Of a stretch of DNA of 64,000 nt, positions 2,678 to 58,725 are shown in pieces. Within the stretch, counting starts at the first letter, position 1. Every line of letters begins with the position of its first letter. The stretch spans positions 1 through 64,000 of the IMG/VR virus record IMGVR_UViG_3300013901_000014; one strand, given 5' to 3'. Origin of the DNA: a virus (lineage: Duplodnaviria; Caudoviricetes). The notes beneath the pieces were generated by a model. It was given only the letters and a program-made list of their open reading frames with translations. It had not been told where the DNA came from and did not search any database. A program made the position numbers and the translations under genes.

Positions 2678-2907
2678 TTATGTGCTACTTATGTGCTACC
2701 CAAACAAGTTAAATACTACCCAAAGATTTGATTATAAACAAGTTAGTAAGTTATATAAATGAATAAGGTATTAACTGCAGAAAGAGATTATATGTGTTTG
2801 ATGATGAGTTATTTACATTGATTGTCAGTTGGTTATGAAAATCAGATGTCGAAAAATGTCGAAAAATAACGGCAATTAGCGATGCCGCTATGCTACCTTA
2901 ATGCTAC
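2678..2907. repeat. att-like region with tandem arm-type repeats
   Basis: TTATGTGCTAC x2 (2678-2699); ATGCTAC x2 with 11-bp period (2890-2907); TGTCGAAAAA x2 (about 2847-2866); AT-rich core upstream of integrase. Confidence 0.55.
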
Positions 2908-4045
2908 TATATATATGATTAACGTTAATGTGATTTTTAACCGAAAGCACCGCCGCGAGCTGGAGGTGAGTGTGTACAACGCGGGGCGGCGCAGATACCT
3001 TGCGCTGGGCATCAGGCTGCCCGAGGGGGCGAAGTACAGCAATGGAGTTGTTAACGCCTGCCTGGACGCGGCTGAGATTAATAACGCCATCGCGGCTGCG
3101 GTGAGGTCGCTCAGGCGGCAGGACGAGGAAGGCGTGGAGCTGTGCGACCTCACGCTCAGGCAGCGCCGCTCGGAGGTGGATGTGGCCGGCTGGATTGAGG
3201 CATATATATATAATAAGTACACGAAGGAGAGTAGCAGGAAGTTATATATGTATGCGCTGAAGGAACTGCGCTCGGGCGGCTTCGTGTATCGGGAAGACTT
3301 CATTTCCGCCCGCGCCCGGAAATTTGTCGCGGCACTTCAGAGCAGGCCGCGGTCGGAGGTGTACAACTATCAGATGTGCAATATCGCGCATATACTCGTG
3401 CGCGCTGCCGTGCGCGCGGGGGTGCTCAGTAAGGACTGCTTCGAGGGTGTGCAGATTAAGGCCGCACACGCGCGGGAGATTGAGTACCTGACAGAGGATG
3501 AGGTACACCAGGTTGAGGCTGTGCGGCTGCGGGAGGGCTCGCGTCACGCGAAGGCGCGCGACATGTTTCTGTTCGCATGTTACACAGGGCTGGCATATAT
3601 AGACATTATAAGATGTAGTGTCAAGGATGTGCGCACGATTGCGGACTCGCGGTGCATATCAGGTCGGCGGCAGAAGACGGGTCAGCCCTACCTCATTAAG
3701 TTGAGCGACAAGGCATATACTATCTTGTGTCGCTACGGCGCTATGAACTTGCTTAACTGCTCGTCAGCGGATGCGGTGCTGACCAGGCGCAAGGATGAGA
3801 CTTCGCCCAGCGTGGCGGAGCTGGCGGGGGTGACCAAGCGCATGACGATGCACGTCGGGCGGCACACGTTCGCCACCATCGCGTTGAGCCGGGGGGTGCC
3901 CATCGAGGTCGTCAGCAAGATGCTGGCGCACGCGTCAGTTAAGACTACTGAGATTTATGCGAAGGTTATCCCCCAGCGCGTTATGGACGCTTATGACTTG
4001 ATAGACAGGGCATTAAACCAAAACAATAAAAACGCTAAACGTTAA
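2882..4045 (+). CDS. int: tyrosine integrase, Bacteroidales type (start may be 2915)
   Basis: FLFACYTGLAYID, HVGRHTFAT and TTEIYAK catalytic motifs. Confidence 0.92.
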   Translation: MPLCYLNATIYMINVNVIFNRKHRRELEVSVYNAGRRRYLALGIRLPEGAKYSNGVVNACLDAAEINNAIAAAVRSLRRQDEEGVELCDLTLRQRRSEVDVAGWIEAYIYNKYTKESSRKLYMYALKELRSGGFVYREDFISARARKFVAALQSRPRSEVYNYQMCNIAHILVRAAVRAGVLSKDCFEGVQIKAAHAREIEYLTEDEVHQVEAVRLREGSRHAKARDMFLFACYTGLAYIDIIRCSVKDVRTIADSRCISGRRQKTGQPYLIKLSDKAYTILCRYGAMNLLNCSSADAVLTRRKDETSPSVAELAGVTKRMTMHVGRHTFATIALSRGVPIEVVSKMLAHASVKTTEIYAKVIPQRVMDAYDLIDRALNQNNKNAKR

Positions 4046-7467: not shown

Positions 7468-10400
7468 ATGGCATACGACAGACTTTATAAACTATATGAC
7501 GCTCTTAAGGAACAGAATGCGACGAGCGTTGACAGAGAAGCATTCCACAAGCAGATGTCTGCGCCCGGATTCGAGGGCTACCAGAACCGCCTGCAGCTGT
7601 ACAAAGAGCTGAAAGCCAACGGCTACGTTGACTACCCAAACTATGAGACGTTTTCGGCGGAGCTGGGCATGCACGCGGCTGCGCCCGCCAAGGGAGCGCA
7701 GAAACATCAGCAAAGGCAGCAGACAACGCCTGCCAAACCGCAGTCCGCGAAGCCGCAGCCCACGAAGCCGCAGCAGGGGTGGACGGCGGCGCAGCGCAAG
7801 CAGGCGGAGGCGCAGCTGGAGCAAAACGCTTATGACAACGCGCGCCTCAGCCGGCAGTGGCAGCAGCAGTCGCAGAACGCCAAGCGCATGCAGCAGCGGG
7901 CGAAGCACATAGGCACTGACTTCACAGGCGACTTTCGCGCCAAGGCGGAGGCGCGGATGGCTGGCATAGCGACCCCAGAGCCTAATATGATAGGCAGCTC
8001 AAACAACGCCGCCAAGGCCACGGGCGTAGTGATAGGCGACGACGGCAGGGCGTACAATCAGTATGAGACTGATGACGGCTCACTGACGACCAACGTCGGT
8101 GACGTGATACGGGCTAACGAGACGCGCAATCTGCGTGAGAGGCTTAACCGCCACGGCCTTGACCCTGAAAATGTGACAGACGACGACATCATGAAGATGT
8201 ATGCTGACGAGGCGTACGACGCTGCGCTGCGAGCAGACAAGACGGCTAACCAGCAGGCCGTGGACGAGGACGCGGGCCGCACGCCGCTTGAGACGATGAG
8301 GCGTGCCGTGGCCAACTACGATGACCTTGATGATGAGTATAGCGATGTTGAGCGCGAAGTCAAGCGCGCCCAGCGCATCAACCCCGACGCGATGGTGGCG
8401 GAGACGCTGCGCAGAATGCCGCCCAGCGTGCTGAGTAGGCTCAGGCGGCAGTACGGCTTATATTACGAGCAGCACCCTAAGGAGTTGAAAAGGGGGCAGA
8501 ACGCGCAGCAGGCGGCTGAAGAGGCCATCAAGGGCAGCATCTATCAGCACGTGTACAACAAGCTTGTCGCAGCCAACGCGCCCAAGTCGACGCTCGAGTA
8601 TCTTATGCGCAAGATTGCCGACCAGCCGCTGTACTCGCAGCACATTGCCAACCAGACCGCGGCAGGCGCGATAACGGGCAATCACGCGCAGTATCTTGCT
8701 GACGAGCAGGCGATGAGCGCCTATGAGAACGAGCACCCCGTGACTGGCTTCTTCGGCACCGTGGGCAACATGGCCGCAGACCCGACAATGTACATCGGCG
8801 GCTGGGTCGGCAGCATGGCGAGCAAGGCCGTGGCGCGCGGAATAGGCCGCGCGGTGGTGAAGGGCGCGAGCGAGAAGATGGCCGAGCGGCTTGCGGGCCG
8901 CACACTGGCCGGGCGCATAGCGCAAGGCGTGGCGGCCGGCGCGGGCAATCTTGGCTTCTATGAGGGCTCGCACGCGGCGCTGCGGCAAGACCGCACGGGC
9001 GAGCACAGCATAGGCGATGTGCTTGCGGCAACCGGCCGCGGCGTGCTGCTGGGAGCCGCAACCGGTGTCGCCGCACCGCTCATCGGCAACGTTGCCGACA
9101 AGGTGGTGGCACGCACCGCCAGCACCGGCGGCAAGTTGGCCGTGCGGACGGGCGAAACCGCCACATCGGTGCTTGCCGAGGGCACGATATTCGCCGCGCC
9201 CGAACTGATTGAGAACGCACGACTCGCAGACGGAGACCCCAACAAGCGCAGCGGCTGGAGCATCTGGGCGGGAAGCCTGGGCACGATGGCCGGCTTCAAG
9301 GGCAAGCACCTGATTGAGAGCGCACCGCGCGTGCTGGCAGAGTTGCGCACCGACGGGGCACGCCGCGGAGTGGGCTTCGAGGGCCGTTTGCGCAACATGC
9401 TCGACCGCACGCCCGCCGACCTGCAGATGACCAATGCCGACCTGCAAGAGCTGCGCGACCGCGGATATGGAGGACTGGCAGACCTTTATGCGCAGGTGCG
9501 CCCGCCCAAACTCCCATCCACACCGCCCGAGTTTCGCACCACTCCACCGCCACTGAAGGACTATGCCCAGTATGCGCAGCCCGAGGAGCTCGGCAAGAAC
9601 AAGGACAAAGACCTTGACGGCTACTCAGCCATGCAACGGCTGATGGACGACCACAGCGTGAGCGCGGCTGTGCGCGCGAAAGCCTACTATCTGCTGACCG
9701 GCAAGATGCTGCCGATGCCCTCTGTGCTGTCGTATGACCGCACAGCCAACGATGACGGCACGATAACCATCACCGCGCTGGGAGCCGAAAACCCAATACC
9801 GGCATACGGCAGCGGCCCTAAAAGCAAGATGCAGGAGATGGGTGCTGACGTGGTTGTTCGCAAGACGTTCAAGAGTGCGAAAGAGGCCGATGTGTATGAG
9901 GCAAAAGTGCGTAGACAGATTGAGCTAAACACCGTGGACGTGGGCGAGCAGCTGCGAGAGGCACAAGTTCAAGACGATGCGCTCGATGCAGCCATAGACG
10001 CGGTGTATCCGGAAGGAAACCACGAGCTGCTGAAGAACCAGTACTGGAGCGGCAGGGTGAAGAGTATAAAGGACGCCATCGACAAGTATCTTGAGAGTCA
10101 ACTCACCGCCAACTCGCCGCACAATCCTCACACCATAAGGCGCGGCATAGAGGAGGAGTATGGCGTTGACATCGACAAGGCGCTGAAGAAGGAGCCTAAC
10201 CGCCGCACACAAGCCGAGGTGGAAGCCGTGCAGGAGTACGCCAACGAACTGTACAACTTCGGCGGCAGAGAGGAAACAGTCGAAAATGCCCAAGTTGGCG
10301 GTAGTGGCCAAGCTGGAGTGCCGCCCGCTGCTGGTGCCACATCGGAGGAGGCAGCCAAGTCCACAACCGAGAACGCCGCCGAACAGGCGCACGAGGAAGG

Positions 10401-13400
10401 GAAGAAGGCGTGGACCGACAACGACGGAGCAGACGACGACACTGCGCTGCAGGGTGCGGTAGACGAAAAGGCCGCACGCGCGCATGCAGCGCTCGACCGC
10501 TTGAACGAGTTATTTGACGAGGAGGCGGTGTCTGTCATCAAGGAAGACCCCAACGCCATGCTGAGTTCTCCAGCGCTGAGCGAGGAGCACAGGGCCGCCA
10601 TACAAGAGTATATCGAGGCCATGGCGGGGCTTGACGGCGTTAAAGAGGCCGCTCAGAAGGCTGCCGAGCAGAACCAGGCCGAGGTGGAGAACGAGGTTGT
10701 GAAGAGCACCAACAAGGAAACAAAGCTGCTGATGCCCGCCACCATGAAGGACGACAGCGGCAAGCTGGTGAGCATCTATGTTGTCGACGGCAAGCTGGTG
10801 CTGAACACCTCAGGCGGCATCGACACGCAGAAGTCAGCACAGACAATAGTAGTGTACGACCCGAATACGGGCAAGTACCGCTTCGTTGACCCGCACGACA
10901 TTCTCGAGCTTGGTCTGCCGGTATCGCCCGACACTGCCGTGCAGTCGGCCATAGACGCGATACAGCAGCGCCACAACGGCATATTCGACCACGCAGAGCA
11001 GGCCGCCCGGCAGCAGAAGTCGCTGCCCGCGCCCACAGCAGAGGGAGGTGAAGGGCCGAAGCCGCCGCGTGGACGCAAGATGGTGGTGAAATGTCTGCGA
11101 GAACTGTCAGAGGCCAAGAAGCCAATCGACAAGCTGAATGCCATCGCCAGAATTTTGTATACTGTGAAATATGGCAGTGAGGGCATAATTACACCCGAGG
11201 AGCAGGCTCTTGTCGACAAGACGCTCGCTGAACTGAAAGAAGAGGGCTACGAGATTGTGGATAAGTGGGAAGGACAGCCTTATGACGAAGGGATGAAATT
11301 AAGCTCCGATACCGAGTTTAAACTCGTTGAAGGCGAGAACATATGGGGAGTGCAAGATGGCGAGACTAAGATTGTTGGGCTGAACAAACCCGAGGTCTGG
11401 AACATGAAAGAGGAGACCACTCAATACCGCATTGGCCCTAATGGCGAGCGCATTCCCTACAAGACAAAGGGCAGACGCTTGCAGAGCGCCGCCGCTATTG
11501 TTGTCACGCGCGATGACACCGGCTGGTCGGTTACAGCGAGACGACTTGAAGAGGTCAAGGGGCGCTTGGAGCGGCTCAAGAAGGGCCAAGCGCCCACCAA
11601 GGTTATTGAGCATCTTGAGAAAGACGTGGCCGGCCTTGAGCGCCAGTTAGCCGAAGAAAAGAAGCAGGCGGCAGCGCGAGACAAGCTGAAAAGTTTGTTT
11701 ACGAATGAAGAAATTACGGCCATTAGAAAAGACCCATACGCAATGCTCGATTCGCCCGGCTTGAGCGAGGAGCACAGGGCCGCTATCCGCGAATATATAG
11801 AAGCGTACAACATCAAGAGAAAGGAACCTGAAGGCGAAGCCAGTGCTACTGGCGAGGGCATGACCGGAAGCGAGAGTACTCCTGCTCCTGAAGAGAAGCA
11901 GCCCATTCAGATGGGCTCAGGTGCGCTTGGGAGCATTCCGAAGAACGAGAAGGGCGAGCCGGTGTATGAGCAAGCCGAGCCTTCGACGGCCTGGCAGGCC
12001 ATATTAGAGCAGACTGAGGGCGACACAGACATGGCGGCCGGTGTGGTCGACAGCATGATTGCCGACAAGGAGGCCGCGGTGAAGAAGGCGAAGAAGGCCA
12101 AGCCGAAGCACGCTGACACCATTGCGGGCAAGATTGCCGCTGAGAAGGAGCGCAAGGCCGCCATCGAGCGTGCCAAGGCCGAGCTTGAGGCGTGGAAGAA
12201 GATTGCCGCCGCCAAGGCCGGGCACGAGAAAGCCGTGGCCGAGCGCAAAGCGGCTGAGGCGAAACAGCAGGAGGCAGAACAACAGACGGTGCAAGGACAG
12301 CCGACAGAACCAAAGCAAGAAGAACAGCCAAAGGCTGATGATGAGGACGCAGCAGAGCGAGCCATTGCTGTCGAAACTGATTGGAACGACAAAATTGACG
12401 ACTATATAGTAGAGCATTATCCGCACATAGACGGGACACGCGCACGCACTCCAGAGGAGCAAAAGCTGTATGATGCAGAACGCGAGGCTTTGAAGAATGA
12501 CAAGACTTATAAAGAAATGATCGCAGCACGTGATGCTGCAATAGAAAAAACTGAGGAGACGAAGCAGCAAGAACAGGAGCGGCACGAGGCCGCCGTGGAC
12601 CAGGCGGAGCAACCCACTAAACCCGAGAAAGCAGACAAGCCGGTTAAGGCTGAGCCGACAGAGGCCAAAGAGGGAAAGCAGAGCACCGAAGCCGAGGGAG
12701 AGAAACCCGACGGGCAAAATGATGGAGCCGACAGTGAGATGCCTGAGGCTGGCGAAGGCGAGGACGCGGGGAAAAATCCGTCACTGGGAGATGTGATAAG
12801 CACGCTCTATGGAAAGGGAAAGGATTTCGCGTCAAGGATTTTCAATATGAAATTCTTTGATTTTGCAAAGACGCCAGACTTCATGAAGCGACTTGGAATA
12901 ACTGGCTCGAAATTCACAATAAGATATGGCGTGATAGCGCGTCACTTCGGCAAAGACGGCTCTCATGACTTCACACAATCGGAGTGGGAGCAGCTGCCCA
13001 ACGCCATAGGACACCCATTTGCAATCACACGGCTGGCTGATAAGGAGAAGGGATTTCGCATATACACTACGTTTAAGACCGAGAAAGGCGAGTATGTTGT
13101 GGTTGGCGTTGATGTGAAGAATGCTGGGCGTGATGTGGAGGTGAACGCAATCTCTACATTATTTGGCCGCAGAAATGGCGCGCACCTATCGGAAAATGAG
13201 CAGGTGGTGTATAGAAGCGAAATAATAACTCCCGAACAGGAGTCACTTCTCAGCCGGCCCAATTCCGACCAATATCCACCTGAACGGGAGTCTTCTGAAG
13301 GCAAAGATAACGCAAGCGGGGCAGACACGCAAGAGGGCGGCGGAAAATCTGCCGTGGCGGTGAAGGAAAAGCCGGAGGAGAAGCCGAAAAAGGACGATGA

Positions 13401-16400
13401 CGACGACGGACCGGACGGGCCCACTGCCGGCGGTGCGGCCACGGGCGGCAAGGGCAAGCCGGAAAGCGACTCTGAAAGCGAGGAGGTTAAGAAGCTCCGC
13501 AAGGAATACGATGAGGCGTGTGACCATTTGGAGGATGTGATGACCGAATGGGACGACAAAATAATTGACTATATCGCTGAGCACTATCCGACTCAAGCCA
13601 CCGTTAGTGCTGAGACAAGGTCGCCTAAGGGCATAAAAGAGCGTGAGGCGATGGACAATGATCCTGTCCTGAAAAAGATGCGCGAGGAGCGTAACGCCGC
13701 TGTTAAGAAAGCCGATGAGGAGCGCTATAAGGCATTTAAAAGAATGGACGCGGCAGAGACGGGCAAGGGTGAGCAAGAGCCGGCAAGCCCGTCGGCCGCG
13801 GCAGAGCAGAAGAAGCCTGCCGAGAGGAAGATTGAGGACGTGGGCGAGCACATTGCCGGTGCGCGCAAGGACGCACTGGCCGAGCTGTCGCAGAGCGTGG
13901 CCGACGTGACGCTGGAGAGCCTGATAGAGCTGCCTGCGTCTAAGGCGTTTAAGCGGCCCGACCTGAAGAGGGCGGTGAAGGAGGGCGTGCTGCGCGAGGA
14001 GGACGCGCGGTTTGCCGAGGCGGTGATGGCCGCGTATCTGGGAGCCGCGAAGCCGAAACTGAAGGAGGGCTACAGGCGCGCCAAGAGCGAGGCTGCGGTG
14101 CGGGCGTGGGCCGAGCACGCCAAGGAGGGCGTGGACTTGCTGGCCAAGCTGTTCTCGCTTGACGAGAAGGGACGCGACAAATACATGGCCGAGGTGCGCG
14201 CCCGCAAGATGTACAGCGAGGAAGAGGTGCGGGAGCGCCAGCGGCAGCTGGAGCAGTGGAACCCCGGCAAGAAGTTCAACGGAACGTGCTATCCGCTGAA
14301 CCCGGTGGACGTGATGGCGCGCGTGATGGAGCGGCTGGGCTATGAGGCCGGGGCCAAGGTGGCGCTTCCGGTTGTGGCGGCTGCGCCCGACAGCGGCTTT
14401 GGCTATTATGTGCTGACTACGCGCAACGGCAAGACGTACTACCCCGGCAGGTGGCTGACGACCATTGACGATGTGGTGGACGAGATTGTGTATGCGGCCA
14501 AGGTGGAGAACGCGGACCCCGACACCGACCACCCCGCGGGCAAGTTCTCGGTGAAGGGTGTGGGCGAGGTGCTGACGGAGCACACCGGCAAATGGACCGT
14601 GATAACTCAGCGCAGCCTCAGTGCGCGGGTTGAACAGCACACGTTCGGCTCAAAGGAGGAGGCCGAGGCGTTTGCGGAGAAGTACAAGGCGGGCGGCAAG
14701 AACCGTTATGCCTCAGCGCCGGAAGAAGAGGTGCGCGCTGCCGGCTACACACAATACGAGATAGTGTACCGGCACGACAGCCCCACCAAGGGGACGGGTG
14801 TGTACATGCCCACGGGCAAGATGTACGGCTCTCTTGAGGAGGCTCGCGCAGCCATTGACGGGGAGCATGACGAGTTGAACGGCATTGTGAACGCCAAGTT
14901 GGCCGAGGAGAAGGGCAAAGGCGGTGAAGGCAGGAAGAAGGACTATGTGAAGATAGTGTTGTACACCGAGGACGGGCGGACGTGGAAATACGGTGTTGTG
15001 CTGGATGACAAATATGCGCCCAAGAAGACTTCGACCGGCTCCATGCCGTTCTACCTTGGTGACGGCTTCGGCACGCGGAAGGAGGCGCAGGCATTTGTGG
15101 ATAAGCACCGCGAGGAGTGGGACGCCAAAATAGCAGACATAGAGAAGGCGCGCCGCGACTTTGTGTATTTCAAAGGCACCGGCGAGCGCACCGGCCAGGA
15201 CTGGCGCAAGGGTGCTGACGTGAGTGCGGAGCAACTGATGGAGCAGTTCGGCTTCCGCGGCGTGCAGTTTGGCAACTGGACCAACCAGCGCGACCGGCAG
15301 GCTGCGGTGAACGGTGCCTTTGACGCCCTTATGGACTTGGCGCAGATATTGGGAGTGTCGCCGCGCGCGCTGAGCCTGAACGGCGAGCTTGGCCTTGCGT
15401 TCGGCTCGCGCGGCGGCGGCAGCGCGAAGGCCCACTACGAGCCGGACGAGGTGGTGATTAACCTCACCAAGACACAGGGGGCGGGCTCGCTGGCCCACGA
15501 GTGGTGGCATGCGCTGGACAACTACTTCGCGCGCCACGGCAACGTGAAGGGCGGCATGGTGACCGAGTCGAAGGGCATAGCGATGCGCGACGAGCTGCGG
15601 GAGGCGTTCAACGCCCTCATCGACAGCGTGGCGGGCAGCGACTACAACATCCGCTCGCGCCAGCGCGGCGCCAGCTATTGGGGCCGGCCCGCTGAGGAGA
15701 CCGCGAGGCTGTTTGCCGCGTGGGTGAGCGACGAGCTGCAGAAGCGCGGCTTGTCGAGTCCGTTCCTTTCTGACACCGACCCCGGTGCTGCCGAGCGGTA
15801 TGCCGAGATGATGTATCGCTTATACAAGGCGATGTATGAGAGTCGCAAGGCGGAGACCGGCGGCAAGGCGATGACTTTTGAGGAGTTCAAGAAGACGCCG
15901 CTGGCTCTGAGCGGGTTTGTGTTTCCCGGCACGGAGGAGCTTGCGGCATTCGGCGGGCATCTGCGAAACATCTTCAACACAGTTCAGGAGAAGGTGGACG
16001 GGCAGACCGGCAAGACGCTGCTGTATCACCGCGGTCCGGTGGTGGCCGAGCCCAACGAGGCCGAGCAGGCTCTGCTGGAGGCGGTGAACGGTGTGCTGAA
16101 GGACACCGGCATCGAGGTGGTGACCGACACGGACGAGGGCCAGAAAGTGCTGGACGCGGCCAACGGGAATGATGTCAAGCTGGAGGCGAGCCACAGAAGC
16201 GGGGAAGCGGAGGAGCGCAACAAGATGTGGCGCCTCATAGACCGCGCAACGGCCATGTTTACAGGCAAAACAGAGAAGGAGGCGCGTGAGGCCCGCCGCA
16301 AGGAGATGCAAAAAATCACTGCTGAGAGGAAAGAAATGTACGACAGGGTTTTGTCGGGAAACTTCGATGAAGTAACTTTGCGGCAGATAGACAACTACAT

Positions 16401-19400
16401 CGATAATTTCTCACCCTACAACAATGAATGGAGACCAATTTCTAAACGACTTCCACAGAAGGCACTACGAGGCTTGCGAAAAGGAGAACGCGCGAGTGCG
16501 GTCGATGTACTTTTCTCACGAATATCTGAAAGCGCAGTCCCAAAGAATGAACGAGCTGGTGCAGAAGGAAAGAGAAGAATTGAGGAGAAAAAGAAAGAAC
16601 TCCTCAAAAAGTGGGCAATAGCCACCGGCAACTGGCACACAAGTGTGTCGGACTTCACCGATGCCAAAGAGCCGCTTGGCAGCGGAAAAGACTCTGACGT
16701 ATACCAGTCCAAAGACGGAAAGCACGTAATCAAAGTGTCGAAAGGCAAGGACGGCCTTAAGAAGTTCCGCCCCGACATTGATGCTGTAACGCTGTTCAAC
16801 TACATATTCCCTGAAAGTAGATACGAGATTCTGGGCTATGGCGAGGTTGACGGCAAGTTCGTGAAGTTCCTCAAGCAGCCAGTAGTGGACTTCACCGGCA
16901 GCAAACCGCTGTCGGCGGAGGAGCGTGTCGCCTATATGGCCGACATGGGCTTCAAGCCCGTCAACAAGGAGAAGACCGCTTTCAGCAACGGCACTATCGT
17001 GGTTGCCGACCTGCAGGGCAACAACATCGTCAGAGACAAGTCGGGCAACATCCGCGTGATTGACGCAGACGTGAAGCTGCACACCAAGGACTTTGGCGGG
17101 CAGTACAGCTATCCGCCCGTTGAGGCCGACACCGCCCTGCCTCAAGCCAACAACGGCGGCAATGAAAAGCCGCGCATGCAGAAGGTGTACCACGGCAGTG
17201 GGGCGGACTTCGACGAGTTCGACAACTCGCACATGGGCGAGGGCGAAGGCGCGCAGGCATACGGCTGGGGCACATACGTGACCGAGGTTGAGGGAATTGG
17301 CCGGACTTATGCGAAAGCGACTGCCCGTTATGATGACAACTCGTCGGAGGAAGTGCTGAATAGGGTCGAATCTTTGGCCGCAGATTTGATTAAAGACCGC
17401 TTCGGCTTTAGGCCGGGGCTTAGCGTTTCGGCCCGCGGTGACAACTACGACTTGGAAATTCCATCGGACAAAAAGACACTGGAGCAGATTAAATCATATT
17501 TCGACGAGTATCCGTATATGTGGAATGCGAAAGTCGACAGGGAATTGAGTTCGTTCAATCTGGACGATGCCGCTTCAAGAAGAGAGTTTGCCAACTGGGT
17601 TTATGAAATTGTTGAGCCGTTTGCGGCGGACGCCGTAGGCTATGCGCAGAAAGAAGAGACCGCCTCCCGCCACCTCTATACTGTTGAAATTCCCGATGAC
17701 AACGGCGAGAACTATATTGATTATAATGGCAGGATAAGCGACATTCCATCACAGAAAATAGATGCAATATGCACGGAGCTTGAAAAACTCGGATGGAAAC
17801 GTAAGGACTTGCCGAGCATGGTAAGGCTCACGGATGGCTATGGCAATATAGTACTTAATCCCAATGCTGCGGGAGCAGACCTCTACGAGGAGATTAAGGT
17901 TGCGTTGAAGAGTCAGAAACTGGCGAGCGAACTGCTGTCAAGAGCCGGCTTTGCCGGCATAAAATACCCTGCTGAGTATATGAGCGGCGGGCGCAAGGAC
18001 GGCGCCAAGAACTATGTGATTTTCAACGAGAAGGACGCAAGGATAACCGACCACGTGCGGTTTTTCCGCACGTCCGGCGGCGAGGCCTACGGCTTCACGG
18101 TGGGCGGCAAGATATACGTGGACCCGCGCATAGCCACTGCCGACACGCCGATACACGAGTACGCCCACCTGTGGGGCGACATGATGCGCCGCGTCAACCC
18201 CAAGGCGTGGGGCGACATCGTGCGCCTGATGAAGGGCAAGGGCGGCCTTTGGGACTGGGTGAAGAAGAACTACCCGGAGCTGGAGACCGACGACGAGGTG
18301 GCCGACGAGGTGCTGGCGCAGTTCTCGGGCAAGCGCGGAGCCGAGCGGCTGCGCGAGGAGATGCGCAAGACTGCCGAGGGCAGCGGCAGCATAACCGAAA
18401 AGGCCAAAGCCATAAGCGCGCTGCAGCGGGTGAAGGAGGCCCTTGGCAGGTTTTGGCGCGGAGTGGCCGAGCTGCTGCACATACGCTTCACCACGGCCGA
18501 GGAGGTGGCCGACCGCGTGATGGCCGACCTGCTGCACGGCGTGGACCCGCGCAAGGTCTCTAACGACAACAGATACAACGAGTTTGCCGAAAAACACAAA
18601 GTAGACGCAAACGAGGTGAAGGACTATGCCACTGCCATTAAGGATGGCAACCTGATGGCCGCCAATAGGGCATTAAGTGAAATTCGCCGCACTTTGCGAG
18701 TGGCGCACAGGGAAATGAACCTGCAAGAGTTCGGCAAATTCTTTCGGCCAATAAATCAAGAACTGGCAGAGCGGTTCGGCGATATTGAAAAATTGCGTCA
18801 AGAACACATTGCAGCTGCAGAGCGAGAGCACAACGCTATGGAGGCTGCACGCAAGAAAGCCGAAGAGGAGGAAGCAAAGAAGAGGAAGCGTCAGGAAGAA
18901 TTGTCAATGCTCACTGCCGACGAGATAGACAAACGCTATGCGGAAGCCCTTGAAAGAGGCGACGAGGCGGCGGCAAGAGAGATGCTTGACGAGGCTGCAC
19001 GCCGCAATGGATATGGCGACACGGAGAGCGACTACCAGGGCGTGGGCGCATGGGTGGCCCCTTCCAACCCAGGCTATGAGAGTGATGAGGCGCGACGCGC
19101 CGATGTTGAGGACAATGCGCCTGACGTGAATTTGGAGGACATGGCGTTAGGGTACAACCTACAGCCGGATGACTATTTTACGCACCCGGAGCGTTACTCA
19201 CAGGACACGCCGCACGGACGGGAGTCGACGCAAGCCATACACGCCGCACTCGAAGCGCTGAAGAGAGGCGACAAGGATGTGAAGGTGAAGGTGTACAGAG
19301 CCGTGCCGACATCGGTGAAAGAGGGAAGTCTGAGAAACGGCGACTGGGTGACCCCATCGAGAAAGTATGCCGAGATGCACGGAAAGAGCAGGCTGGAAGG

Positions 19401-22400
19401 CAAATACCGCATCATAGAAGACGAAGTCCCGGCCAAAGACCTTTGGTGGGACGGCAACGATGCCAACGAGTTCGGATATGATGACGGCAGGGGGTACAAG
19501 TACAAGAACACCAAGAACAACAGAAAGCTGAACGACTTGGTGACGCGCGATGATGACGGCAACATCATTCCACCGTCAAAGCGTTTTAACGAGCGTGAGC
19601 AAGATGTGCGCTATTCGCTGCGCCACGTGTTTGGCGGCAACAGCGGCTATGTGGGCTACTCGATGAGCAAGCGCGCGGCGCAGGCGCGTGAGGACGGACG
19701 CTATCCGAAAACCGACTTCCGGAAGGAGTACAGCGTGACGCCGAAGACCTTTGACGCGCTTGTGGACGCTGGCGTGATTGACAGCGGCGAGTGGCACCAC
19801 ACCAGCATGTATGGCAACAAGACTCCGTTCTACGGGTGGAAGCCCATGTATGACGCAGTGTATGCCGCCAACAAAAAGGAAGTTGACAAGATGGCGCGGA
19901 CCCTCAAGATGCAGCAGACTGAGGCTGAGTTTTCGGACTACCTTGACAACGACAACCCTTACCGCTACCGTCCCACTTCGGAGGAGTACCAGAAGAAGAT
20001 GGGCGATATAGACCGGCAAGAGAGTCATGCCGCCAGAGACATAAACCTGATGTATGACGATGCCTACAACCCTGAGACCGAGCGGAAGAGGATGCAAGAG
20101 CTTCAATCGCTACGCGAAAAGAGCGGCAAACTTAAAGACGAGGTGCGCCGCCAATACCCCGAGGACGCAGCGATAGAGGCCGAAAACAGGAAAGGTGTCG
20201 ACTGGCACGTTGAGCAGATTGAGAAGCGCAACAAGGAGAGAGAAGCCCTAAGGCAGAAATTCCATGATTACTTTGACGCGAAGCGCGACGAGCTCGTGTA
20301 CGATGAGATGGAAAAGGCTGGCATACTCACTATGGGCGCGGACGGCCCGCATTGGAGCAAGCCTAAATATGCAGAGATATTCAACCATTATAAAGACGCG
20401 GCCATTGACACCATCGCAGAGGCAATGGCTGAAAGGCTGAAGAACCCCTACGACGAGGACTATGCCGAAGGGATTTCCGAATACCGGAAAGACCTGCAAA
20501 AGGTCAAGGCTGACAAATGGGCTGAAGGCAACGCCTTGAATGCAAAGTATAGGGACAAGGAGTTCCGAAAGCAACACCCTGACTACTACAAGCGAGAAAA
20601 AATGCTTGAAGAGGAAAAAGAGCGGCTCAGAGAGAAGTATGAGGCTCTTGAGGAAGATGTGCTCAAGCGTCACCCGGAGGAGTTGGAACGTAGGCAGAAA
20701 GCGTTTGAGTGGCCATCTGATGAGGAGGCGCAGCAACAAGCCCGAGAGAAACTACTTGCCGAACGCTTGCAACAGTTCTTTGAGGAAGACACCGCCGACC
20801 CGGACGAGGGGAAGAAGTTTCGTCTGCTGGACGATGACGACCCGCAGGCTCAGGAGCTGTCGCTGCCCGAAGGCGAGCCCAAGGAGACGCTTGCGCAGGC
20901 CATGGTGCGCCGCGTGAAGGAGCTGGCGGCGAAGCTTGGCGCGAAGGTGCGCATCGTCACCAGCGCCGATGATCTGCCCAAGACTCCGGGCAGCCGCCAG
21001 CGCAGGATGAAGGGCATGTATGACACCCGGACGGGCGAGGTGACAATAGTGATTGGCAACCACGAGAACCTTGCCGACGTGGAGAACACGGTGCTTCACG
21101 AGGCTGTGGGGCACAGGGGCTTTCGCGTGCTGTTTGACACCAAGGAGAAGTTCGACCACGCCATGGACGAGCTGTACCGCGTGTCGGGCGGGAAAATCAG
21201 GAAGTGGATAGACGACAAAGTGCGCAAGCTGTATGACGACGAGGTGGACCGCATAATGGAGCGCAAGCGCAAGGAGCGCCGCGCCAGGGGCGAGGGCCCG
21301 AGCGAGCACCATTTGGAGGACATGGCCGCGGCCGCCATCGAGGCGAGCAAGAAGAAGGACCAGTTCCGCCGCGAGGCCACCGAGGAATACGGCGCCCGCC
21401 TGGCTGGCCGCATAGGCGAGAAGGGCTTTGAGAAGCTGAGCGCGGAGGAGCAGACCTTCTGGGGCAGACTGAAGTCGATGCTGCAGAAGGCGCTGCAGCG
21501 ATTGGCCGAGGGGCTGAACATCACCGGCAGGCACGAGTGGACCGACAAGGACTGGGCCTACGTGCTGCACGAGGCTTACAAGCGCGAGAAGAACGGCGGC
21601 AAGCCGAGCATCTTTGACGAGGCCGACACCATAGCCATGCGCATGCGCACCGGCTTCGGCGAGGGCAAAGAGGAAGGCCGCAAGATGACCACCCTATCAG
21701 GGGAAGAGGCCAAGCAGGCTCTTAATGAGATTTTCAGCGCGGAGTCACATACGGTCAAGCCAGAGAAGATTTCGTCTCTTGCAAAGTTTAGGGATATATT
21801 CAGTAAGCCGATACGCACGTTTTTGGGTGAAGTTATAAAGGTCAAGGATGCCGTGTGGAACAAGGTCCTCCGCGAAAACCGACAGAACATTTCCGGTGCA
21901 ATACTGCCCACTTTGCAAAATGCGGACTTCGCCATCCGTGATACGGACGGAAGCATACTGTATGTGAAGCGGTTCTTGAACAGTACGGGAGAATCCACCT
22001 ATAACGTGGCGGTTGTAAACAAACATGGCGAACTGGAGGACTACATCAGTTCTGTTCACATAAAAACAAATAACAACCTGCTGAACAAAATAGGAAAAGG
22101 TGCCGAACTGCTAATACCGGAAAACCGGAATGGCTATGGGCACGAAGTCCCAAGCAGTTCAACACCCGATGCAAAGATAGACATAGAAAACGAAAGCGGC
22201 AACACTTTCGGCTCGAATAAGTACAAAAAATCTTCTGATGAGAACCCGGACGAGGGCATGATGTTCCGCGACGGTGACGATGACGACATTGGCGATGTGG
22301 ACCTTGGCGACGCTGTGGACAAGATGCGCGATGCGGCAGTGGAGAGCAACGCCAACAACCTGCAGGCCAAGCGCGAGGCGATGAAGGCCATAGGCGGCAA

Positions 22401-25400
22401 CCTGAGCAAGCTGCGTCAGGCTATGTCGCGGCAGAAGGTGTATGACAAGGGCACTGTGAAGAGCGTGACCGACATGGCGCGCGAGATGCTGCAAAACGGC
22501 ATGCTTGACAAGCTGAGCGGCTACGAGGCCAAGCGCATACTCTCGGCCGCGGCCAACGTGACGGGCGCGGAGAACACGGCCAGACAGATTAACAAGCTGA
22601 TGGACGTGATGGTGGACAACCAGCTGCGCAACGCCGGCGACACATTCGGCAAGCTGCTGCACTCCAAGGGCACGCGCGTGAACGCAAGCGGCGTGGAGGT
22701 GCAGGGCAAGCTCGACCCCGACGGCGCGGCCATAGTGGACGCCCTGAAGAAAGGCGTGCAGCTTGACAAGGAGGAGCTGAACGGGCGCATCGGCAAAGCG
22801 CTTGACAAAATCGGCAGCGAGGACAAGGTCATTGCCGACCAGGCCGCCAACGAGCTGGCCGGCCTGCAGCTGGCGTCCCGCTACGTGGAGGACATCAAGG
22901 GCAGCAAAGCCGAAGAGACAGAACTGCGCGAGAGCCTGAAAGAGGCCAAGGCGCAGAAAGACGCCGGCAAGATGAGCGCGGAGGCCTACAAGCAGTATTG
23001 CGAAGCCACCGAAGATGCCATACGACAGAACAAGATAGAGCGTGCCGACGCCTACCGACAGCTGATTGCACAGCTTGGCGGAGTGATGGGAGAAAGCGCA
23101 GAGCGCGCCAAAGCGTGGCGGGAGGCCGAAAAGCAGCGGGTGCAGGACATTCAGCACAACGCCAACTCGGACATGCAGGGCAGGCCGTGTAACGAGCACC
23201 ACAAACCATCATCACTACAGAAGTTGTGCAACAGCGACCTTATAAGGGGTCTCTTGATGCCACTTGCGACCTTTGAGCAGATGCTGCGAATGTTCGGCAA
23301 CAAGAACGTGCACGGTGAGGGCTATCTGTGGAACCGCTTTGTGCGCGGCTGGCTCCGTGCTTCGGAAAACGAATACAGCGGTTACCGCGACGCGCTGAAA
23401 GAACTTGACGACAAAGTGAGCGAGATATTCGGCAAGAAGATGCGCTGGGGCGACATATTCAGCCTTGAGCGCAAGCTGCCCACCATGGAGGTGAAGTTTT
23501 GGGACGGCGGAGAGATGAAGCCGCACACGCTGACGCAGGGCAACCTTGCATACATCTACATGGTGGACAAGATGAGCGACGGGCGCATGAAGCTGCGCGC
23601 GATGGGCATCACCGAAGGAGATGTGGAGCAAATCGCAAAAGCACTTGACCCGAAACTGAAGAAACTTGCCGACTGGATGCAGGACGAGTTCCTGGTGCAG
23701 AGGCGCAACAAGTACAACGAGGTGCACAAGCGCATGTTTGGGGCATCGATGGCCGCCATTGAGAACTACTTCCCGCTGAAGATACTCTCGGGTGCACGCA
23801 CGGAGAACGTGGATGTGGCGGACGATACCGGTGAGCCTACAATGACATCCACCACCACTGGCAGCATTGTCAAGCGCCGCCGCAACAACCTTGCGCTCGA
23901 CATCACCAATGCAGACGCATTCTCGGTAATTCTTGAGCATTTGCAAGACATGGAGCACTGGGCCGCATACTCAGAGTTTAACCGCGACCTGAACACGCTG
24001 CTATCATACAGGCGGTTCAAGAACCAGGTGATGAACATGAGCAGCGCATACGGAGCCGGTGCAACACTGTGGAAAAACTTCCGCAATGTGTGCCAGCTGG
24101 CGGCTGGTTCATACCGCCCGCCGGTGGCGACACTTGACAAGACAATGGTAAACCTCGCCAAAGGCGTGACCGCTGCAAAGATTAGCTTCAGAATATTCAC
24201 CGCCATCAAGCAGTTGCTTTCGTTCCCCGCTTATCTGCCTGACGCGAGCGCAAGGTATCTGCTTCAGAACCTTGCGAACCCAGTGGGCGCATGGAAATGG
24301 AGCATAGAGAACCTGCCGCTATTCCACAAACGATGGAACAGCCGCATGGCAGGCGACCCGCGACTGCTTAAAACTGAAATGGACTGGAAGATGTGGCGCA
24401 GCCGCGTGGTGCAAATGGCGTCAAAATACGGCATGAGCCCCAACGCATTTGTGGATGCGGTTACCGTGGCAATGGGTGCGCACGCCATCTACAAGACCAA
24501 ACTCGCCAAGTACCTCAAGCAGGGCTATGACAAGGACAAGGCCGAAGAGAAGGCGCGCCAAGACGCGGAGATTGCATACAACCAGACACAGCAGTCAAGC
24601 GAAGGTGCGTTCTTGTCGACAATGCAGGCCGACAGAACGTGGGGCAGCGTGCTGTTCACAGTGTTCCGCAACTCGGCAATGTCGTACACACGTCAGGAGT
24701 ATGACGCGCTGCGCAACCTTGCGCGCAAGTTGACCACGAAGGGGTACAAGGAAAAGAGCATTGGGTTTATGGCAAAGCAGATGGTGCGTGACGGCCTTGA
24801 CGAAAACACCGCATGGAGGAATGCAAAGCGCACATACAGCCGCTCAATATGGCGCGAGTTTGTGCGGGTGGCCACGTTCGGCTACATATTGCAGCTTGCG
24901 TGGAACCTTGGCGCATACTTGCCGTATCTGTTGCTCGGAGACAACGACGACGACAAGAAGAAGATGCTCGAAGACGCAGGACTTCACGCACTTGTTGGCA
25001 GCGTGGAGGGCTTGACTGGCGGTGACGTGCTGAGCACAGCCGGCCAGTATGCACTCACGGGCGAGGGCACTATTGGCAACTTAAAGAAGGAAATGCCACT
25101 TACCTCAGACTTGCATGCAATCTACCAGAGCTTCGACTACGATGCAGTGCAAGCCACCAACGACGTGCTGAATTTGCTTGTGCAGGCAGGCGTGGGCGTT
25201 AACCCGCAATCGCTGACCGATGCCGTGGTGGGCGTGATGGACTACTGCGAAAACAACCCGGCAGACGCGCGTGAGTGCGCATTGCTGATAGCGCGCATAT
25301 TCAACACTCCGCAGAGCCAGCTCGACAAGATTTATTTCGACGAGATAGACCTTGACGGCAGCGACGCACGCAAATTGTCGCCCAAGCAGATTGCCGAGCG

Positions 25401-25858: not shown

Positions 25859-25906
25859 CAGAGAGTGGGTGCAATAATGACTAATATTGCACCCACACTG
25901 TTTTTG
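25859..25906 (+). terminator. terminator/attenuator between giant gene and portal
   Basis: GTGGGTGCAATA/TATTGCACCCAC 12-bp stem followed by TGTTTTT. Confidence 0.75.
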
Positions 25907-25913
25907 CATACTT

Positions 25914-27899
25914 ATGATAACAAAGAACAACGATAAGGACACAGCCGTGGTGCTGCTCAGCCTGAGCCGCGTGACACCCGAGCCCGAGCCGAGCAGCGAA
26001 GAGATGGACAGCGTGAAAGTCTCGCAGCTGCAGCAGGACAGGCGCGCGTTTGACGTGCTGATGGAGGCACAGTACTACTGGAACCAGATGGATGACTTCC
26101 GCCGTGAGCGGCAGCGCAACAAGCGCTACGCCTACGGCAAGCAGTGGGACGACCTGATTACCGTGGACGGCTGCACGATGACCGAGGAGGAATACATAAA
26201 GAAGCAGGGCAACGTGCCGCTGAAGAACAACCTCATCCGCCGCCTGATGCGCAACGTGATAGGTGTGTTCCGCAGCCAATCGAAAGAGCCGACATGCACC
26301 GCCCGCGACCGCGACGAGCAGCGGTTGGGCGAGGCGATGTCGACACTGCTGCAATGCAACATGCAGCTGAACCGCATGGACGAGTTGAATGCGCGCACTA
26401 TGGAAGAGTTTCTGATAAGCGGCATAGCAGTGCAGCGCAAGAGCTATGGCTGGAGAAATGGGCGTGAGGACTGCTGGACCGATTATGTGCAGCCGAACAA
26501 CTTCTTTATCGACAACAACATGCGCGACTTCCGCGGCTGGGACGTGGGCTTTCTTGGCGAAGTTCACGACATATCGTTTGGACAGCTGTGCGAGCAGTTT
26601 GCCTCCACTCCCGACGACTACAGACGGCTGCGCGAGATATACCGCAACGCATCGCGCAAAGACTACATAGCATCGTACGCCGCCAGCTTCGGCTACAGCA
26701 AGCTCGACAACTACGACTTCCTGTTCACCAGCGAGCCGGGCCGCTGCCGCGTAGTGGAAGTGTGGCGCAAAGAGCAGAAGCCGCGATACCGCTGCCACGA
26801 CTACCAGAACGGCGACATCTTCAAGGTGGACGAGGAAGACTACGCATCGCAGGTGCTTGCCGTGAACGAGCAGCGCATGCAGATGGGGCGCGAGTATGGC
26901 ATGGAAGATGACGACATACCGCTAATCACCGCCGAGTGGTTTATGGACGATTACTGGTACTTTTACTACCTCAGTCCGTTTGGAGACATACTGAAAGAGG
27001 GCGAAACCCCGTTTGAGCACGGCTCCCACCCTTACGTGTTTAAGGTATATCCGTTCATTGACGGAGAGATACACAGCTTTGTGGGGGACGTGATAGACCA
27101 GCAGCGGTACACCAACCGCCTGATAACACTCTACGACTGGGTGATAAGGAGCACCGCCAAGGGCGTGCTGCTTGTGCCCGAGGACTGCCTTCCCGACGGC
27201 GTGAGCATGGACGACATAGCCGAGCGGTGGTCGGAGGTGAACGGAGTGATAGCGTTCAAGCCGAGCAAGAGCGGGGCGGTGCCGAGCCAAGTAGCCAGCA
27301 ACGCCACCAACATAGGCGTCGCCGAGCTGCTGAACATGCAGCTGAAGTTCTTTGAGGACATATCGGGCGTGAACGGTGCTTTGCAGGGCAAGCCAGGCTA
27401 CAGCGGCACAAGCGCGGCACTCTACAACCAGCAGACACAGAACGCCACCACATCGCTGCTTGACTTGCTCGAAGCGTTCAGCTACTTTGTGAAAGACGGA
27501 GCATACAAGGACGTGAAGAACATCCAGCAGTTCTATGACGAGAAGCGCGTGCTGAACATTGCCGGCAAGAGCGGCGCGGCAATACAGCTCGACCCACAGA
27601 GAATACGCGACACAGAGTTTGACTTGAGCATTACCGAGAGCACGAGCACGCCAGCATACCGCACGCTTGCCAACGACATACTGATGCAGCTGTGGCAGGC
27701 TCAGGCAATCAGCGTGGAGCAGTTGCTTGAATACGGCAACTTCCCATTTGCCGACGACTTGCTGCAAAGCATTCAGTCGCAAAAAGAACAGATACAGAAC
27801 GGCCAGACACCGGAGGGCATGTCGCCGCAGCTGCAACAGCAGGTGCAGGCACAAGCCAACCCACAGGCAATGGAACGGCTACAACAATACATGCAGTGA
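25914..27899 (+). CDS. portal protein (P22/podovirus-like)
   Basis: 661 aa from ATG 25914; N-terminal YYWNQMDDFRRERQRNKRYAYGKQW; Q-rich barrel-like C-terminus; context. Confidence 0.85.
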   Translation: MITKNNDKDTAVVLLSLSRVTPEPEPSSEEMDSVKVSQLQQDRRAFDVLMEAQYYWNQMDDFRRERQRNKRYAYGKQWDDLITVDGCTMTEEEYIKKQGNVPLKNNLIRRLMRNVIGVFRSQSKEPTCTARDRDEQRLGEAMSTLLQCNMQLNRMDELNARTMEEFLISGIAVQRKSYGWRNGREDCWTDYVQPNNFFIDNNMRDFRGWDVGFLGEVHDISFGQLCEQFASTPDDYRRLREIYRNASRKDYIASYAASFGYSKLDNYDFLFTSEPGRCRVVEVWRKEQKPRYRCHDYQNGDIFKVDEEDYASQVLAVNEQRMQMGREYGMEDDDIPLITAEWFMDDYWYFYYLSPFGDILKEGETPFEHGSHPYVFKVYPFIDGEIHSFVGDVIDQQRYTNRLITLYDWVIRSTAKGVLLVPEDCLPDGVSMDDIAERWSEVNGVIAFKPSKSGAVPSQVASNATNIGVAELLNMQLKFFEDISGVNGALQGKPGYSGTSAALYNQQTQNATTSLLDLLEAFSYFVKDGAYKDVKNIQQFYDEKRVLNIAGKSGAAIQLDPQRIRDTEFDLSITESTSTPAYRTLANDILMQLWQAQAISVEQLLEYGNFPFADDLLQSIQSQKEQIQNGQTPEGMSPQLQQQVQAQANPQAMERLQQYMQ

Positions 27900-43328: not shown

Positions 43329-43332
43329 TTTT

Positions 43333-43562
43333 GGTGCATTGTTTTGAACATTGTCGGCGCTGCAAAGGGCAGCAGCCGCGGGCGGAAAAGTGCGAAAATA
43401 ATGCACCCCGGAAGCGCCCGGGAGCATTGCCGGCAAACGAATGCCGCATAAATAAAGGGCCGGCGGCTTTGCGCGCACAACTCTTATTACTTATTTATAG
43501 CGCTTTCGCAATTATTTTATTTTCAGACAGTTGTGATTTGGCCGCGAAATCGGTGCATTGTT
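43333..43562. repeat. att-like/arm-type repeats upstream of integrase B
   Basis: GGTGCATTGTT at 43333 and 43552; inverted AATGCACC at 43400. Confidence 0.5.
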
Positions 43563-53212: not shown

Positions 53213-53245
53213 GCTGAACAGCTGATAGAAAACTGAAATATCTAT

Positions 53246-53352
53246 TTGTGTTGCAAATATATTTTGTGTAACTTTGCCCAAAGGGCACGCACATTATGAG
53301 ACCCTGGCGTACGCGGGCTCTTGGACATCTGCCTCCAAGGGCCCGCAAACGC
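53246..53352 (+). promoter_or_regulatory. promoter and structured leader of ParB-MTase/packaging operon
   Basis: TTTG-N19-TAACTTTG (53269-53276); 13-bp GCGGGCTCTTGGA/TCCAAGGGCCCGC hairpin. Confidence 0.6.
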
Positions 53353-57013: not shown

Positions 57014-57046
57014 CACCGATTTTCACTTTTTACGCACATTAGACAC

Positions 57047-58435: not shown

Positions 58436-58725
58436 TGATGAGAAGGAGCACAAACAACCGCAAGCCGATAGGCGCCGTCCCCGCCCGGCAGGAGGCACCT
58501 GTCCGCCATTGCTGGGATTGCGATCTCGTGGCTGACACCTATGGCGTGAACCGGGCGGGCGCTCCGATCCTTTGCCAATGCCCGCATGGGGGCAAGCACT
58601 ATCACTTTTTGTCCGATACCGCCTGTGCGCATTTTAGGGCCGCAGACGCAACCAAGCAACAGCAACAGACAGCACATGACCGAGGAGGAAAGACGCGCGC
58701 AGCGGGCGCGCATTGCAGCGATTGA
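58432..58725 (+). CDS. small Cys/His-rich hypothetical protein
   Basis: CWDC...CQCPH...C..F, possible Zn site. Confidence 0.5.
   Translation: MMMRRSTNNRKPIGAVPARQEAPVRHCWDCDLVADTYGVNRAGAPILCQCPHGGKHYHFLSDTACAHFRAADATKQQQQTAHDRGGKTRAAGAHCSD

Follow-up and report, generated by a model that had tools for sequence, protein, structure and literature searches.

Evidence for a small gene with its own promoter nested in the kinase leader of a giant polyvalent-protein gene of a Bacteroidales phage

Rz/Rz1 of phage lambda and other embedded spanins are phage genes nested within a larger gene, and such genes commonly encode a partner of the product read in the host frame. Small genes also lie upstream of kinase toxins of the HipBA type, where they encode the antitoxin, and the polymorphic-toxin and type VI secretion systems of Bacteroidales have orphan immunity genes. 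The promoters of Bacteroides, as Bayley, Rocha and Smith reportedly described in 2000, are of a −33/−7 type with the elements TTTG and TAnnTTTG. Polyvalent proteins are regarded as payloads of several enzymes, injected by phages and conjugative elements so as to disarm the new host. They include a kinase of the Bacteroidetes lacking the C-lobe, described in polyvalent and stand-alone forms with no overlapping gene, internal promoter or partner gene (Iyer et al. 2017, PMC5512222). We have analysed a stretch of 64,000 nucleotides (nt), here called the window, that comprises positions 1 to 64,000 of the IMG/VR virus record IMGVR_UViG_3300013901_000014. It contains a giant open reading frame (ORF) for a protein of this kind, and immediately ahead of its Kinase-PolyVal domain we find an ORF for a protein of 65 amino acids (aa) in the +1 frame, with a predicted promoter of its own. 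Judged by the pattern of sequence conservation, this nested ORF is very probably a real gene.

The arrangement resembles lambda Rz/Rz1 in that a larger phage gene contains the whole of a small one in its +1 frame, with both frames apparently under selection. It differs in that the host gene encodes a multi-effector protein of 6123 aa and the nested gene has its own conserved promoter. Moreover, the small gene is tied to one type of domain, the kinase, and also occurs free-standing in chromosomes, and its product has neither a lipoprotein or membrane signal nor any link to lysis. Nested +1 genes and intragenic promoters are known already. What is new is that a polyvalent effector gene contains an overprinted, probable partner gene with a promoter of its own, and that there is a large unannotated family of derived orphan genes. 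A full-text search of the literature found no description of such a nested gene.

A preliminary description of this region, made from the sequence, had proposed an out-of-frame ORF that starts 43 nt after the −7 box with A at position −3 and stops where the kinase core begins, in a segment richer in AT than its flanks. All of this is borne out. The start codon is the first ATG in any frame after the −7 box, and the stop lies 36 nt into the Pfam domain, ahead of the glycine-rich loop at ~16678. The GC content is 0.445 over 16300-16599, compared with 0.63-0.66 in the sequence before it and 0.58-0.63 in that after it. On the + strand, no intrinsic terminator was detected past the small gene.

Some 40 homologous loci were examined in all. 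Thirty of these were fetched at 60-95% protein identity over a 370-aa query and aligned by codon in the giant frame, and the codon statistics are based on 25 non-redundant homologues. In each of the 33 loci scanned, and likewise in the distant viral copies L047-L050, the +1 ORF is uninterrupted, has an ATG and ends at a conserved stop. Conservation of the open frame in homologous kinase-bearing proteins had been named as a test of the preliminary description, and the frame is conserved in 25/25 of the non-redundant set. In every copy the start codon falls at one or other of two sites, aligned to 16406 and ~16424 respectively, and never at both; the 16406-type ATG is created as xAT-Gxx at an Asn/His-Val pair in surroundings that are otherwise variable. 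Synonymous recoding of each host protein leaves the +1 frame open in just 3-14% of cases, and insertions of 6 and 12 nt among the homologues preserve the frame. Over the segment no homologue has the +2 frame or one of the antisense frames open, while another antisense frame is open in 18/25. Two further candidates were rejected. A programmed frameshift from the giant frame into the +1 frame is ruled out by the presence of an independent ATG in every copy and by the position of that ATG upstream of the kinase ORF in the stand-alone gene L055. A shorter in-frame isoform of the kinase expressed from the internal promoter is ruled out by the lack of an ATG in the host frame until well inside the kinase domain.

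Selection on the second frame is visible in the synonymous sites of the first. The entropy at third positions of the host frame falls from 1.2-1.6 bits to 0.35-0.6 bits over 16411-16620, and is 1.2 bits again at 16621-16680. At conserved residues the codon entropy is 0.32 inside the core and 1.14 outside (Mann-Whitney p = 7.6e-11), and 53% of codons are invariant inside compared with 2.8% outside. The 3′ edge of the frozen zone coincides with the nested stop to within one codon. Variation is free from the next codon, and right after the nested TAG, Thr, Gly, Asn, His, Asp, Phe, Pro and Val residues that are themselves invariant are encoded by the full range of their codons. Synonymous-site constraint in the overlap, which had been suggested as a check, is therefore strong and ends where the small gene ends. 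Within the zone Ser-Lys-Arg-Leu-Pro is always encoded TCT-AAA-CGA-CTT-CCA where the residues occur (21-25 of the 25 per codon), for which codon usage outside the zone gives an expectation of ~8e-5 per sequence. Pairwise identity averages 79% in the small protein against 76% in the host-frame segment, and nucleotide identity is 84% in the core against 74% in the kinase domain at equal protein identity. There is also a switch of TCA-CGA to AGC-AGA that keeps Ser-Arg in the host frame and changes His to Ala in the nested frame. On these codon patterns we read 16350-16621 as a true dual-coding segment, encoding the giant protein in frame 0 and the small gene in the +1 frame.

The consensus −33/−7 promoter that had been claimed within the giant ORF is present, as TTTG-N19-TAACTTTG at 16350-16380. 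The motif TTTG-N17-21-TAnnTTTG is found five times in the window where 0.42 are expected, an excess of about twelve-fold. None of 100 shuffles gave five motifs, which marks the motif as a genuine class of signal in this genome. The TTG of the −33 box, a Leu codon at 16351-16353, is invariant in 25/25 copies despite the existence of six Leu codons, and the first T of the box is retained in 20/25. In the −7 box, read as the codons GTA/CTA/TTA, ACT and TTG, the third positions are constant in 25/25, 24/25 and 25/25 respectively. The single deviation in the 25 copies, ACT to ATT, still satisfies TAnnTTTG. Outside the dual-coding zone GTA, ACT and TTG make up 19%, 27% and 29% of the codons for their amino acids. 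Third positions in the spacer codons are free, with entropies of 1.4-1.9 bits. The box TAnnTTTG is retained as TAACTTTG or TAGTTTTG in L047-L050, where the kinase is just 60-66% identical, and it is also kept by the orphan small genes described below. Fixed boxes flanking a free spacer are the pattern expected of a working −33/−7 promoter written into coding sequence. The motif has the exact consensus boxes and a 19-nt spacer in common with the Bacteroides promoters, in which about 19-21 nt separate the boxes, and departs from the usual ones in that the predicted promoter is intragenic, doubling as Val-Leu ... Val-Thr-Leu codons.

The association with the kinase extends well beyond the close homologues. 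A Pfam search of 401 Bacteroidales genomes found Kinase-PolyVal in 16, in polyvalent genes and in stand-alone genes of 200-290 aa. A six-frame search of the 401 genomes with the 65-aa protein found it in just 2; the close subfamily is therefore rare, and the wider family becomes visible through a profile search. The small-protein profile matches +1-frame sequence that immediately precedes the kinase domain in the polyvalent genes L063 and L056 and the 527-aa gene L062, and it also matches the stand-alone kinases L053 and L055 and the remnant L065. The +1 profile score beats all 400 synonymous shuffles of the host protein in L049, L050, L053, L056, L062 and L063, a test that took the place of a null based on ORF length. 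Among diverse kinase genes 12 of 14 have an ATG-initiated +1 ORF of 49-80 aa, ending from 18 codons before to 16 codons after the start of the kinase domain. The kinase gene L067, which lacks the N-terminal extension, has no small +1 ORF. The distant members share Y/F-L/I-N-D/E-F-H-R/K near the N-terminus and H/Q-P-x-S-x-E...Q at the turn of a predicted hairpin. In the profile-matched genes nested copies were found before Kinase-PolyVal only, with none before another domain. By these sequence comparisons the small gene appears to be an old and near-constant companion of Kinase-PolyVal, in polyvalent and stand-alone genes.

The stand-alone genes bear on the origin of the overlap. In L055 the −7 box is followed by the ATG of the small ORF and then, ~27 nt later and in the other frame, by that of the kinase, with an overlap of ~45 codons; on the mRNA, the small-ORF ATG thus comes first. 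In L053 the small ORF sits entirely inside the kinase ORF. Since the overlap is present in both, it is ancestral to the family and not a by-product of fusion into a giant gene. The suggestion that an ancestral antitoxin-kinase bicistron was absorbed in frame is not supported as it stands, the stand-alone kinase genes having the same +1 overlap with the N-terminal extension of the kinase. At another locus (L074:248-4302) an 832-aa called protein, P0039, ends in small-protein sequence (residues 771-821), and a separate 501-aa gene with Kinase-PolyVal and LPD1 domains follows directly. This looks like a polyvalent gene that has been split or frameshifted, with its upstream part reading into the nested frame.

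Free-standing homologues next to kinase genes had also been anticipated. Such homologues do exist in chromosomes, but those sampled are mostly without a kinase neighbour. There are six independent cases of chromosomal copies without an intact kinase (L028, L029, L030, L025/L031/L032, L033 and L070-L077), and the small ORF is intact in all. Copies of the partner gene that lack the kinase comprise L028, L029, L030, L033, L070, L073, L075, L076 and L077, all of the orphan loci coming from metagenome assemblies. In several loci only a fragment is present, surrounded by housekeeping genes (Table 1). The orphan fragments begin 0-60 nt 5′ of the promoter, L030 beginning exactly at the −7 box. They end 0-35 nt past the nested stop in L029, L030 and L033, ~170 nt past it in L028 and ~370 nt past it in L031. 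The host frame is broken while the small ORF remains intact in four loci: L029 and L031, where the cause is a 4-nt insertion, L033, where a stop follows Val-Thr-Leu-Arg, and the decaying giant gene L012. The orphans retain host-frame remnants of the kinase leader, and therefore derive from kinase genes. Their aligned flanks show no shared terminal sequence that would mark them as a mobile element. The assemblies of the orphan-bearing genomes G002 and G003 contain no intact kinase. The box TAnnTTTG is found 27-47 nt before the ATG in 9/12 free-standing copies.

Some of these loci deserve individual description. In a Sodaliphilus metagenome-assembled genome (MAG; L012:2826-3420) the giant frame is broken around the cassette, leaving an open stretch of just 194 aa; TGG has become TAG at the equivalent of window position 16612, and the nested ORF of 64 aa is intact. 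A further MAG, G001, has three copies, a full kinase-bearing one (L017) and the orphans L025 and L029 at different chromosomal loci. L025 is identical to L017 over 122 bases upstream of and into the small ORF, and gene conversion between them is possible. At L073:638-1011 there are two tandem, slightly overlapping small genes (70 and 65 aa); a vWA-like gene, and not a kinase, follows them.

A profile search of 1.84 billion representative sequences found 283 clusters at E <= 1e-3 and 42 at <= 1e-10, with nearly all members of the 283 clusters 48-170 aa in length. The sampled free-standing members have Fic, NUDIX, DUF2442, SocA/Panacea or Cas12a genes as neighbours, with no kinase adjacent. The orphans L070, L075, L076 and L077 adjoin Fic/DUF4172, DUF2442, Cas12a and SocA/Panacea genes, neighbourhoods that are typical of defence or toxin-antitoxin loci.

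AlphaFold2 (AF2) run on 34 sequences predicts that the small protein is a two-helix hairpin (mean predicted local distance difference test, pLDDT, 82.5) with helices at residues 9-29 and 32-62. Its tail is basic and contains serines, with the sequence R-K-R-K-N-S-S; S60 is invariant and S61 nearly so, both following the basic residues, and the ...K-N-S ending recurs in the distant L055, L056 and P0008. The AF2 model of the host-frame product of 16321-17118 has a pLDDT of 87.5 and a predicted template-modelling score of 0.86. In this model the region of overlap forms helices 57-70 and 81-102, leading into the N-lobe of the kinase. As modelled, both frames encode an ordered helical protein.

The PF18762 match spans profile positions 2-159 of 160, and the kinase residues K42, D134, N139, D152 and D154 are invariant in 20 homologues. 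The closest solved folds to the kinase model are HopBF1, DAPK and NleH1, and the best neighbours in the PDB are all protein kinases; the model thus has a minimal protein-kinase fold. To our knowledge there is no nested partner gene for HopBF1 or NleH1. Like these proteins (6pwd, 4lrj), the domain is a compact kinase without much of the C-lobe, associated with delivery into another cell; the similarity is weak, however (E about 1e-3, 14-17% identity), and the delivery route and the hosts differ. In a codon alignment of 19 giant-ORF stretches covering 13.2-20.3 kb, only ~16150-17150 aligns across all homologues, and sequence coverage and the fraction of conserved columns climb there only. Since the flanks are mosaic, the leader and kinase behave as one cassette. 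Recombination of cassettes at polyvalent loci with this kinase has been raised previously (Iyer et al. 2017, PMC5512222).

What might the small protein do? Its regular association with this kinase type, together with its solitary chromosomal copies, makes a dedicated partner of the kinase probable. We favour a neutralising subunit, immunity- or antitoxin-like, that acts on the Kinase-PolyVal kinase, and we put this forward tentatively, at somewhat under an even chance. Three things favour it: the small gene could be expressed independently, it lies upstream, and its orphans without a kinase are reminiscent of orphan immunity genes. The linkage of small ORF to kinase holds over phage, polyvalent and stand-alone gene architectures. 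In the mechanism we envisage, the small gene would be transcribed from its own −33/−7 promoter within the giant coding sequence, and translation would start at the first ATG of the internal transcript. The protein could then be produced even when no late giant transcript is made, as in a lysogen; the phage appears temperate, with two integrases, and expression from the prophage is therefore possible. The small protein would act on the kinase, most likely by neutralising it, and the kinase-less orphans retained in chromosomes might blunt a kinase delivered by a virion or another element. As in toxin-antitoxin and effector-immunity pairs, a small gene begins upstream of an enzyme domain that may be harmful and is closely linked to it, independent expression is possible, and kinase-less orphans are scattered, some of them near Fic, SocA/Panacea or Cas12a genes. 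Unlike such pairs, the two products are read from one piece of DNA in different frames and not from adjacent cistrons, and the small protein has no sequence or fold match to an antitoxin, immunity or defence family. A more specific proposal makes the 65-aa protein the first cognate factor, for immunity or regulation, to be found for a polyvalent effector domain, overprinted in that domain's leader and expressed from a promoter within the giant gene, and holds that Bacteroidales hosts have repeatedly captured promoter-plus-gene fragments as an orphan defence against kinases delivered by virions or elements; this we regard as possible and on balance doubtful.

Several points weigh against a neutralising role, or against the evidence for it. 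Polyvalent effectors act in the next host, and a need for self-immunity is not obvious. Searches of Pfam, NCBIfam, PHROG and PADLOC with the small protein and nine relatives found nothing above cut-off, a Foldseek comparison of the hairpin model with the PDB gave no match to a solved fold, and the ESM Atlas gave no usable match. Remnants with the kinase only exist (L064-L066 and L069). The homologues share a phylogeny, so that counts among them are not independent events. For the distant set the null based on ORF length gives a moderate Fisher p = 3.5e-4 and is partly mis-specified for L055 and L062. Detection of orphans is biased toward fragments bearing the core, one of the scan patterns lying inside it. 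Finally, both frames stay open within the core of the orphans, so that selection there may not act on the small ORF alone.

The alternatives differ in how much of the above they accept. The most sceptical is that a chance ORF and a chance promoter-like motif coincide in an AT-richer, Lys/Glu-rich linker. Coding sequence of this composition has few +1 stops, a single recoded sequence having the open frame in 3-14% of cases, and an antisense frame is likewise open in 18/25 homologues; against an ORF open in 25/25, frozen synonymous sites (p = 8e-11), invariant promoter boxes and the shuffle tests, this explanation is effectively refuted. It is very improbable that the constraint acts on the nucleic acid, be it an RNA structure, a small RNA, a DNA binding site or a joint for cassette recombination, with the open +1 frame as a by-product. 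What is directly observed is conservation at the nucleotide level, and the mosaic flanks mean that recombination nearby is frequent, in keeping with the cassette recombination raised by Iyer et al. 2017 (PMC5512222). Yet the frozen zone stops within a codon of the nested stop, the ATG is maintained at alternative sites in otherwise variable sequence, the 6- and 12-nt insertions keep the frame, multi-base changes such as TCA-CGA to AGC-AGA leave both proteins sensible, and distant homologues keep similarity at the protein level where the DNA has diverged. RNAalifold applied to 16 diverse copies gave only −13 kcal/mol over 260 nt, with a covariation term of +0.22 and no covarying structure, and Rfam at a permissive threshold had no match in 15800-17300. 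A reading as RNA structure was set aside for these reasons.

If the ORF is translated, its product might still have no function in trans, the ORF serving as a leader that tunes translation of the kinase frame. L055, where one mRNA carries both and the small ORF begins ~27 nt ahead of the kinase ATG and overlaps the kinase frame, would suit such a role, as would the constant position of the nested stop at the start of the kinase domain. We consider this very improbable: the peptide is conserved over its whole length and as strongly as the host-frame protein, the host frame in the window has no in-frame ATG from the promoter until well inside the kinase, and the orphans persist without a kinase. 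A protein unrelated to the kinase, such as a small regulator or a moron-type host-modifying protein fixed by overprinting, with orphans that act alone, is unlikely. The predicted promoter, the large free-standing family of 283 clusters, the sampled contexts without kinases and the basic helical hairpin, which as modelled could bind nucleic acid, would all be accommodated, but nested copies always lie immediately before Kinase-PolyVal, whether polyvalent or stand-alone, and never before other domains, and the leader remnants of the orphans point to an origin in kinase genes. It is rather unlikely, though less so, that the product is a positive partner of the kinase, for example an activating or targeting subunit, a chaperone, a substrate or a pseudosubstrate. 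The evidence of linkage to the kinase serves this explanation equally. The R-K-R-K-N-S-S tail resembles the site of a basophilic kinase and its ...K-N-S end is recurrent, and nested phage genes such as lambda Rz/Rz1 often encode partners of the host-frame product. Conservation of the tail may, however, merely mirror the host-frame sequence E-E-K-K-K-E-L-L at the start of the kinase domain, and where a genome lacks an intact kinase, its orphans would seem to have little need of an activator.

Whatever its precise role, a gene overprinted on the kinase leader offers a concrete and testable handle on the control of polyvalent enzymes and on resistance to them. The nested start codon would be lost through a single base change, T16425C, that is synonymous in the host frame (AAT to AAC). 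Gene callers miss an ORF nested in a longer one, and members of the family come to light only where there is no host frame or a broken one; even so, 283 clusters of unnamed small proteins from gut metagenomes belong to it. Should the orphans give protection against phages with the kinase, they would represent a novel type of anti-phage gene, taken from the phage's own coding sequence.

The IMG/VR record that holds the window is 78,874 bp in length and is rated complete by CheckV. It contains two tyrosine-integrase genes together with portal, major head protein, tail-fibre and terminase genes, and therefore represents a temperate tailed phage or a pair of such elements. Close relatives of the region are in MAGs of Muribaculaceae, Bacteroidaceae and the "Porphyromonadaceae" label, along with five further viral contigs. 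The host group is Bacteroidales and the lifestyle temperate. A Pfam scan of the giant protein in three overlapping pieces found MuF_C, LPD5, LPD1 and Kinase-PolyVal domains and a weak match to ART-PolyVal. Many effector-type domains and a packaging-linked domain occur in one polypeptide whose gene adjoins that of the portal, and for this reason we assign the product, from its domain content, to the polyvalent proteins in the sense of Iyer et al. 2017 (PMC5512222). It shares with them the many effector-type domains, the MuF-type link to packaging and the C-lobe-less kinase. The features are collected in Table 1.

Table 1. Position of the nested gene, its surroundings in the window and the genes flanking its orphan relatives
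Feature	Position	Strand	Remarks
Giant host ORF	7468-25839	+	From the ORF list; polyvalent protein, 6123 aa
Kinase cassette	16150-17150	+	Helical leader with predicted promoter and nested gene, then kinase domain
−33 box TTTG	16350-16353	+	Bacteroidota-type promoter motif inside giant ORF
−7 box TAACTTTG	16373-16380	+	19-nt spacer from TTTG; host frame reads Val-Thr-Leu
Nested gene (predicted), 65 aa (P0001)	16424-16621	+	+1 frame relative to giant ORF
Dual-coding core	16441-16621	+	Host-frame synonymous sites almost frozen
Kinase-PolyVal (PF18762)	16585-17082 (about)	+	Pfam 3.2e-36, 125.2 bits, cut-off 27
Portal gene	25887-27899		Directly downstream of giant ORF
Orphan L028			Between alcohol dehydrogenase and AraC regulator
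Orphan L029			Between mazG-like gene and dtd/uvrC
Orphan L030			Adjoins ECF sigma/anti-sigma pair
Orphan L025/L031/L032			Orthologous in three genomes; between glycogen debranching enzyme and TonB receptor
Orphan L033			Adjoins GH127 gene

The ART-PolyVal match lies directly after the kinase cassette, at window 17176-17316, and is below threshold (24.4 bits, cut-off 31.2). Integrases and packaging-type genes span 2882-4045, 25887-27899, 42159-43478 and 55577-61030 of the window. There appear to be two packaging sets, one with the portal at 25887 and a second with TerL at 55577. The second also includes a MuF-like head protein at 58586 with a match to a Bxa-type ADP-ribosyltransferase, and two elements may be joined in the one record. 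Elsewhere in the window, at 53245-53282, two full −33/−7 motifs on opposite strands face each other directly upstream of a ParB/methyltransferase gene at 53386, in what looks from its sequence like a divergent promoter region.

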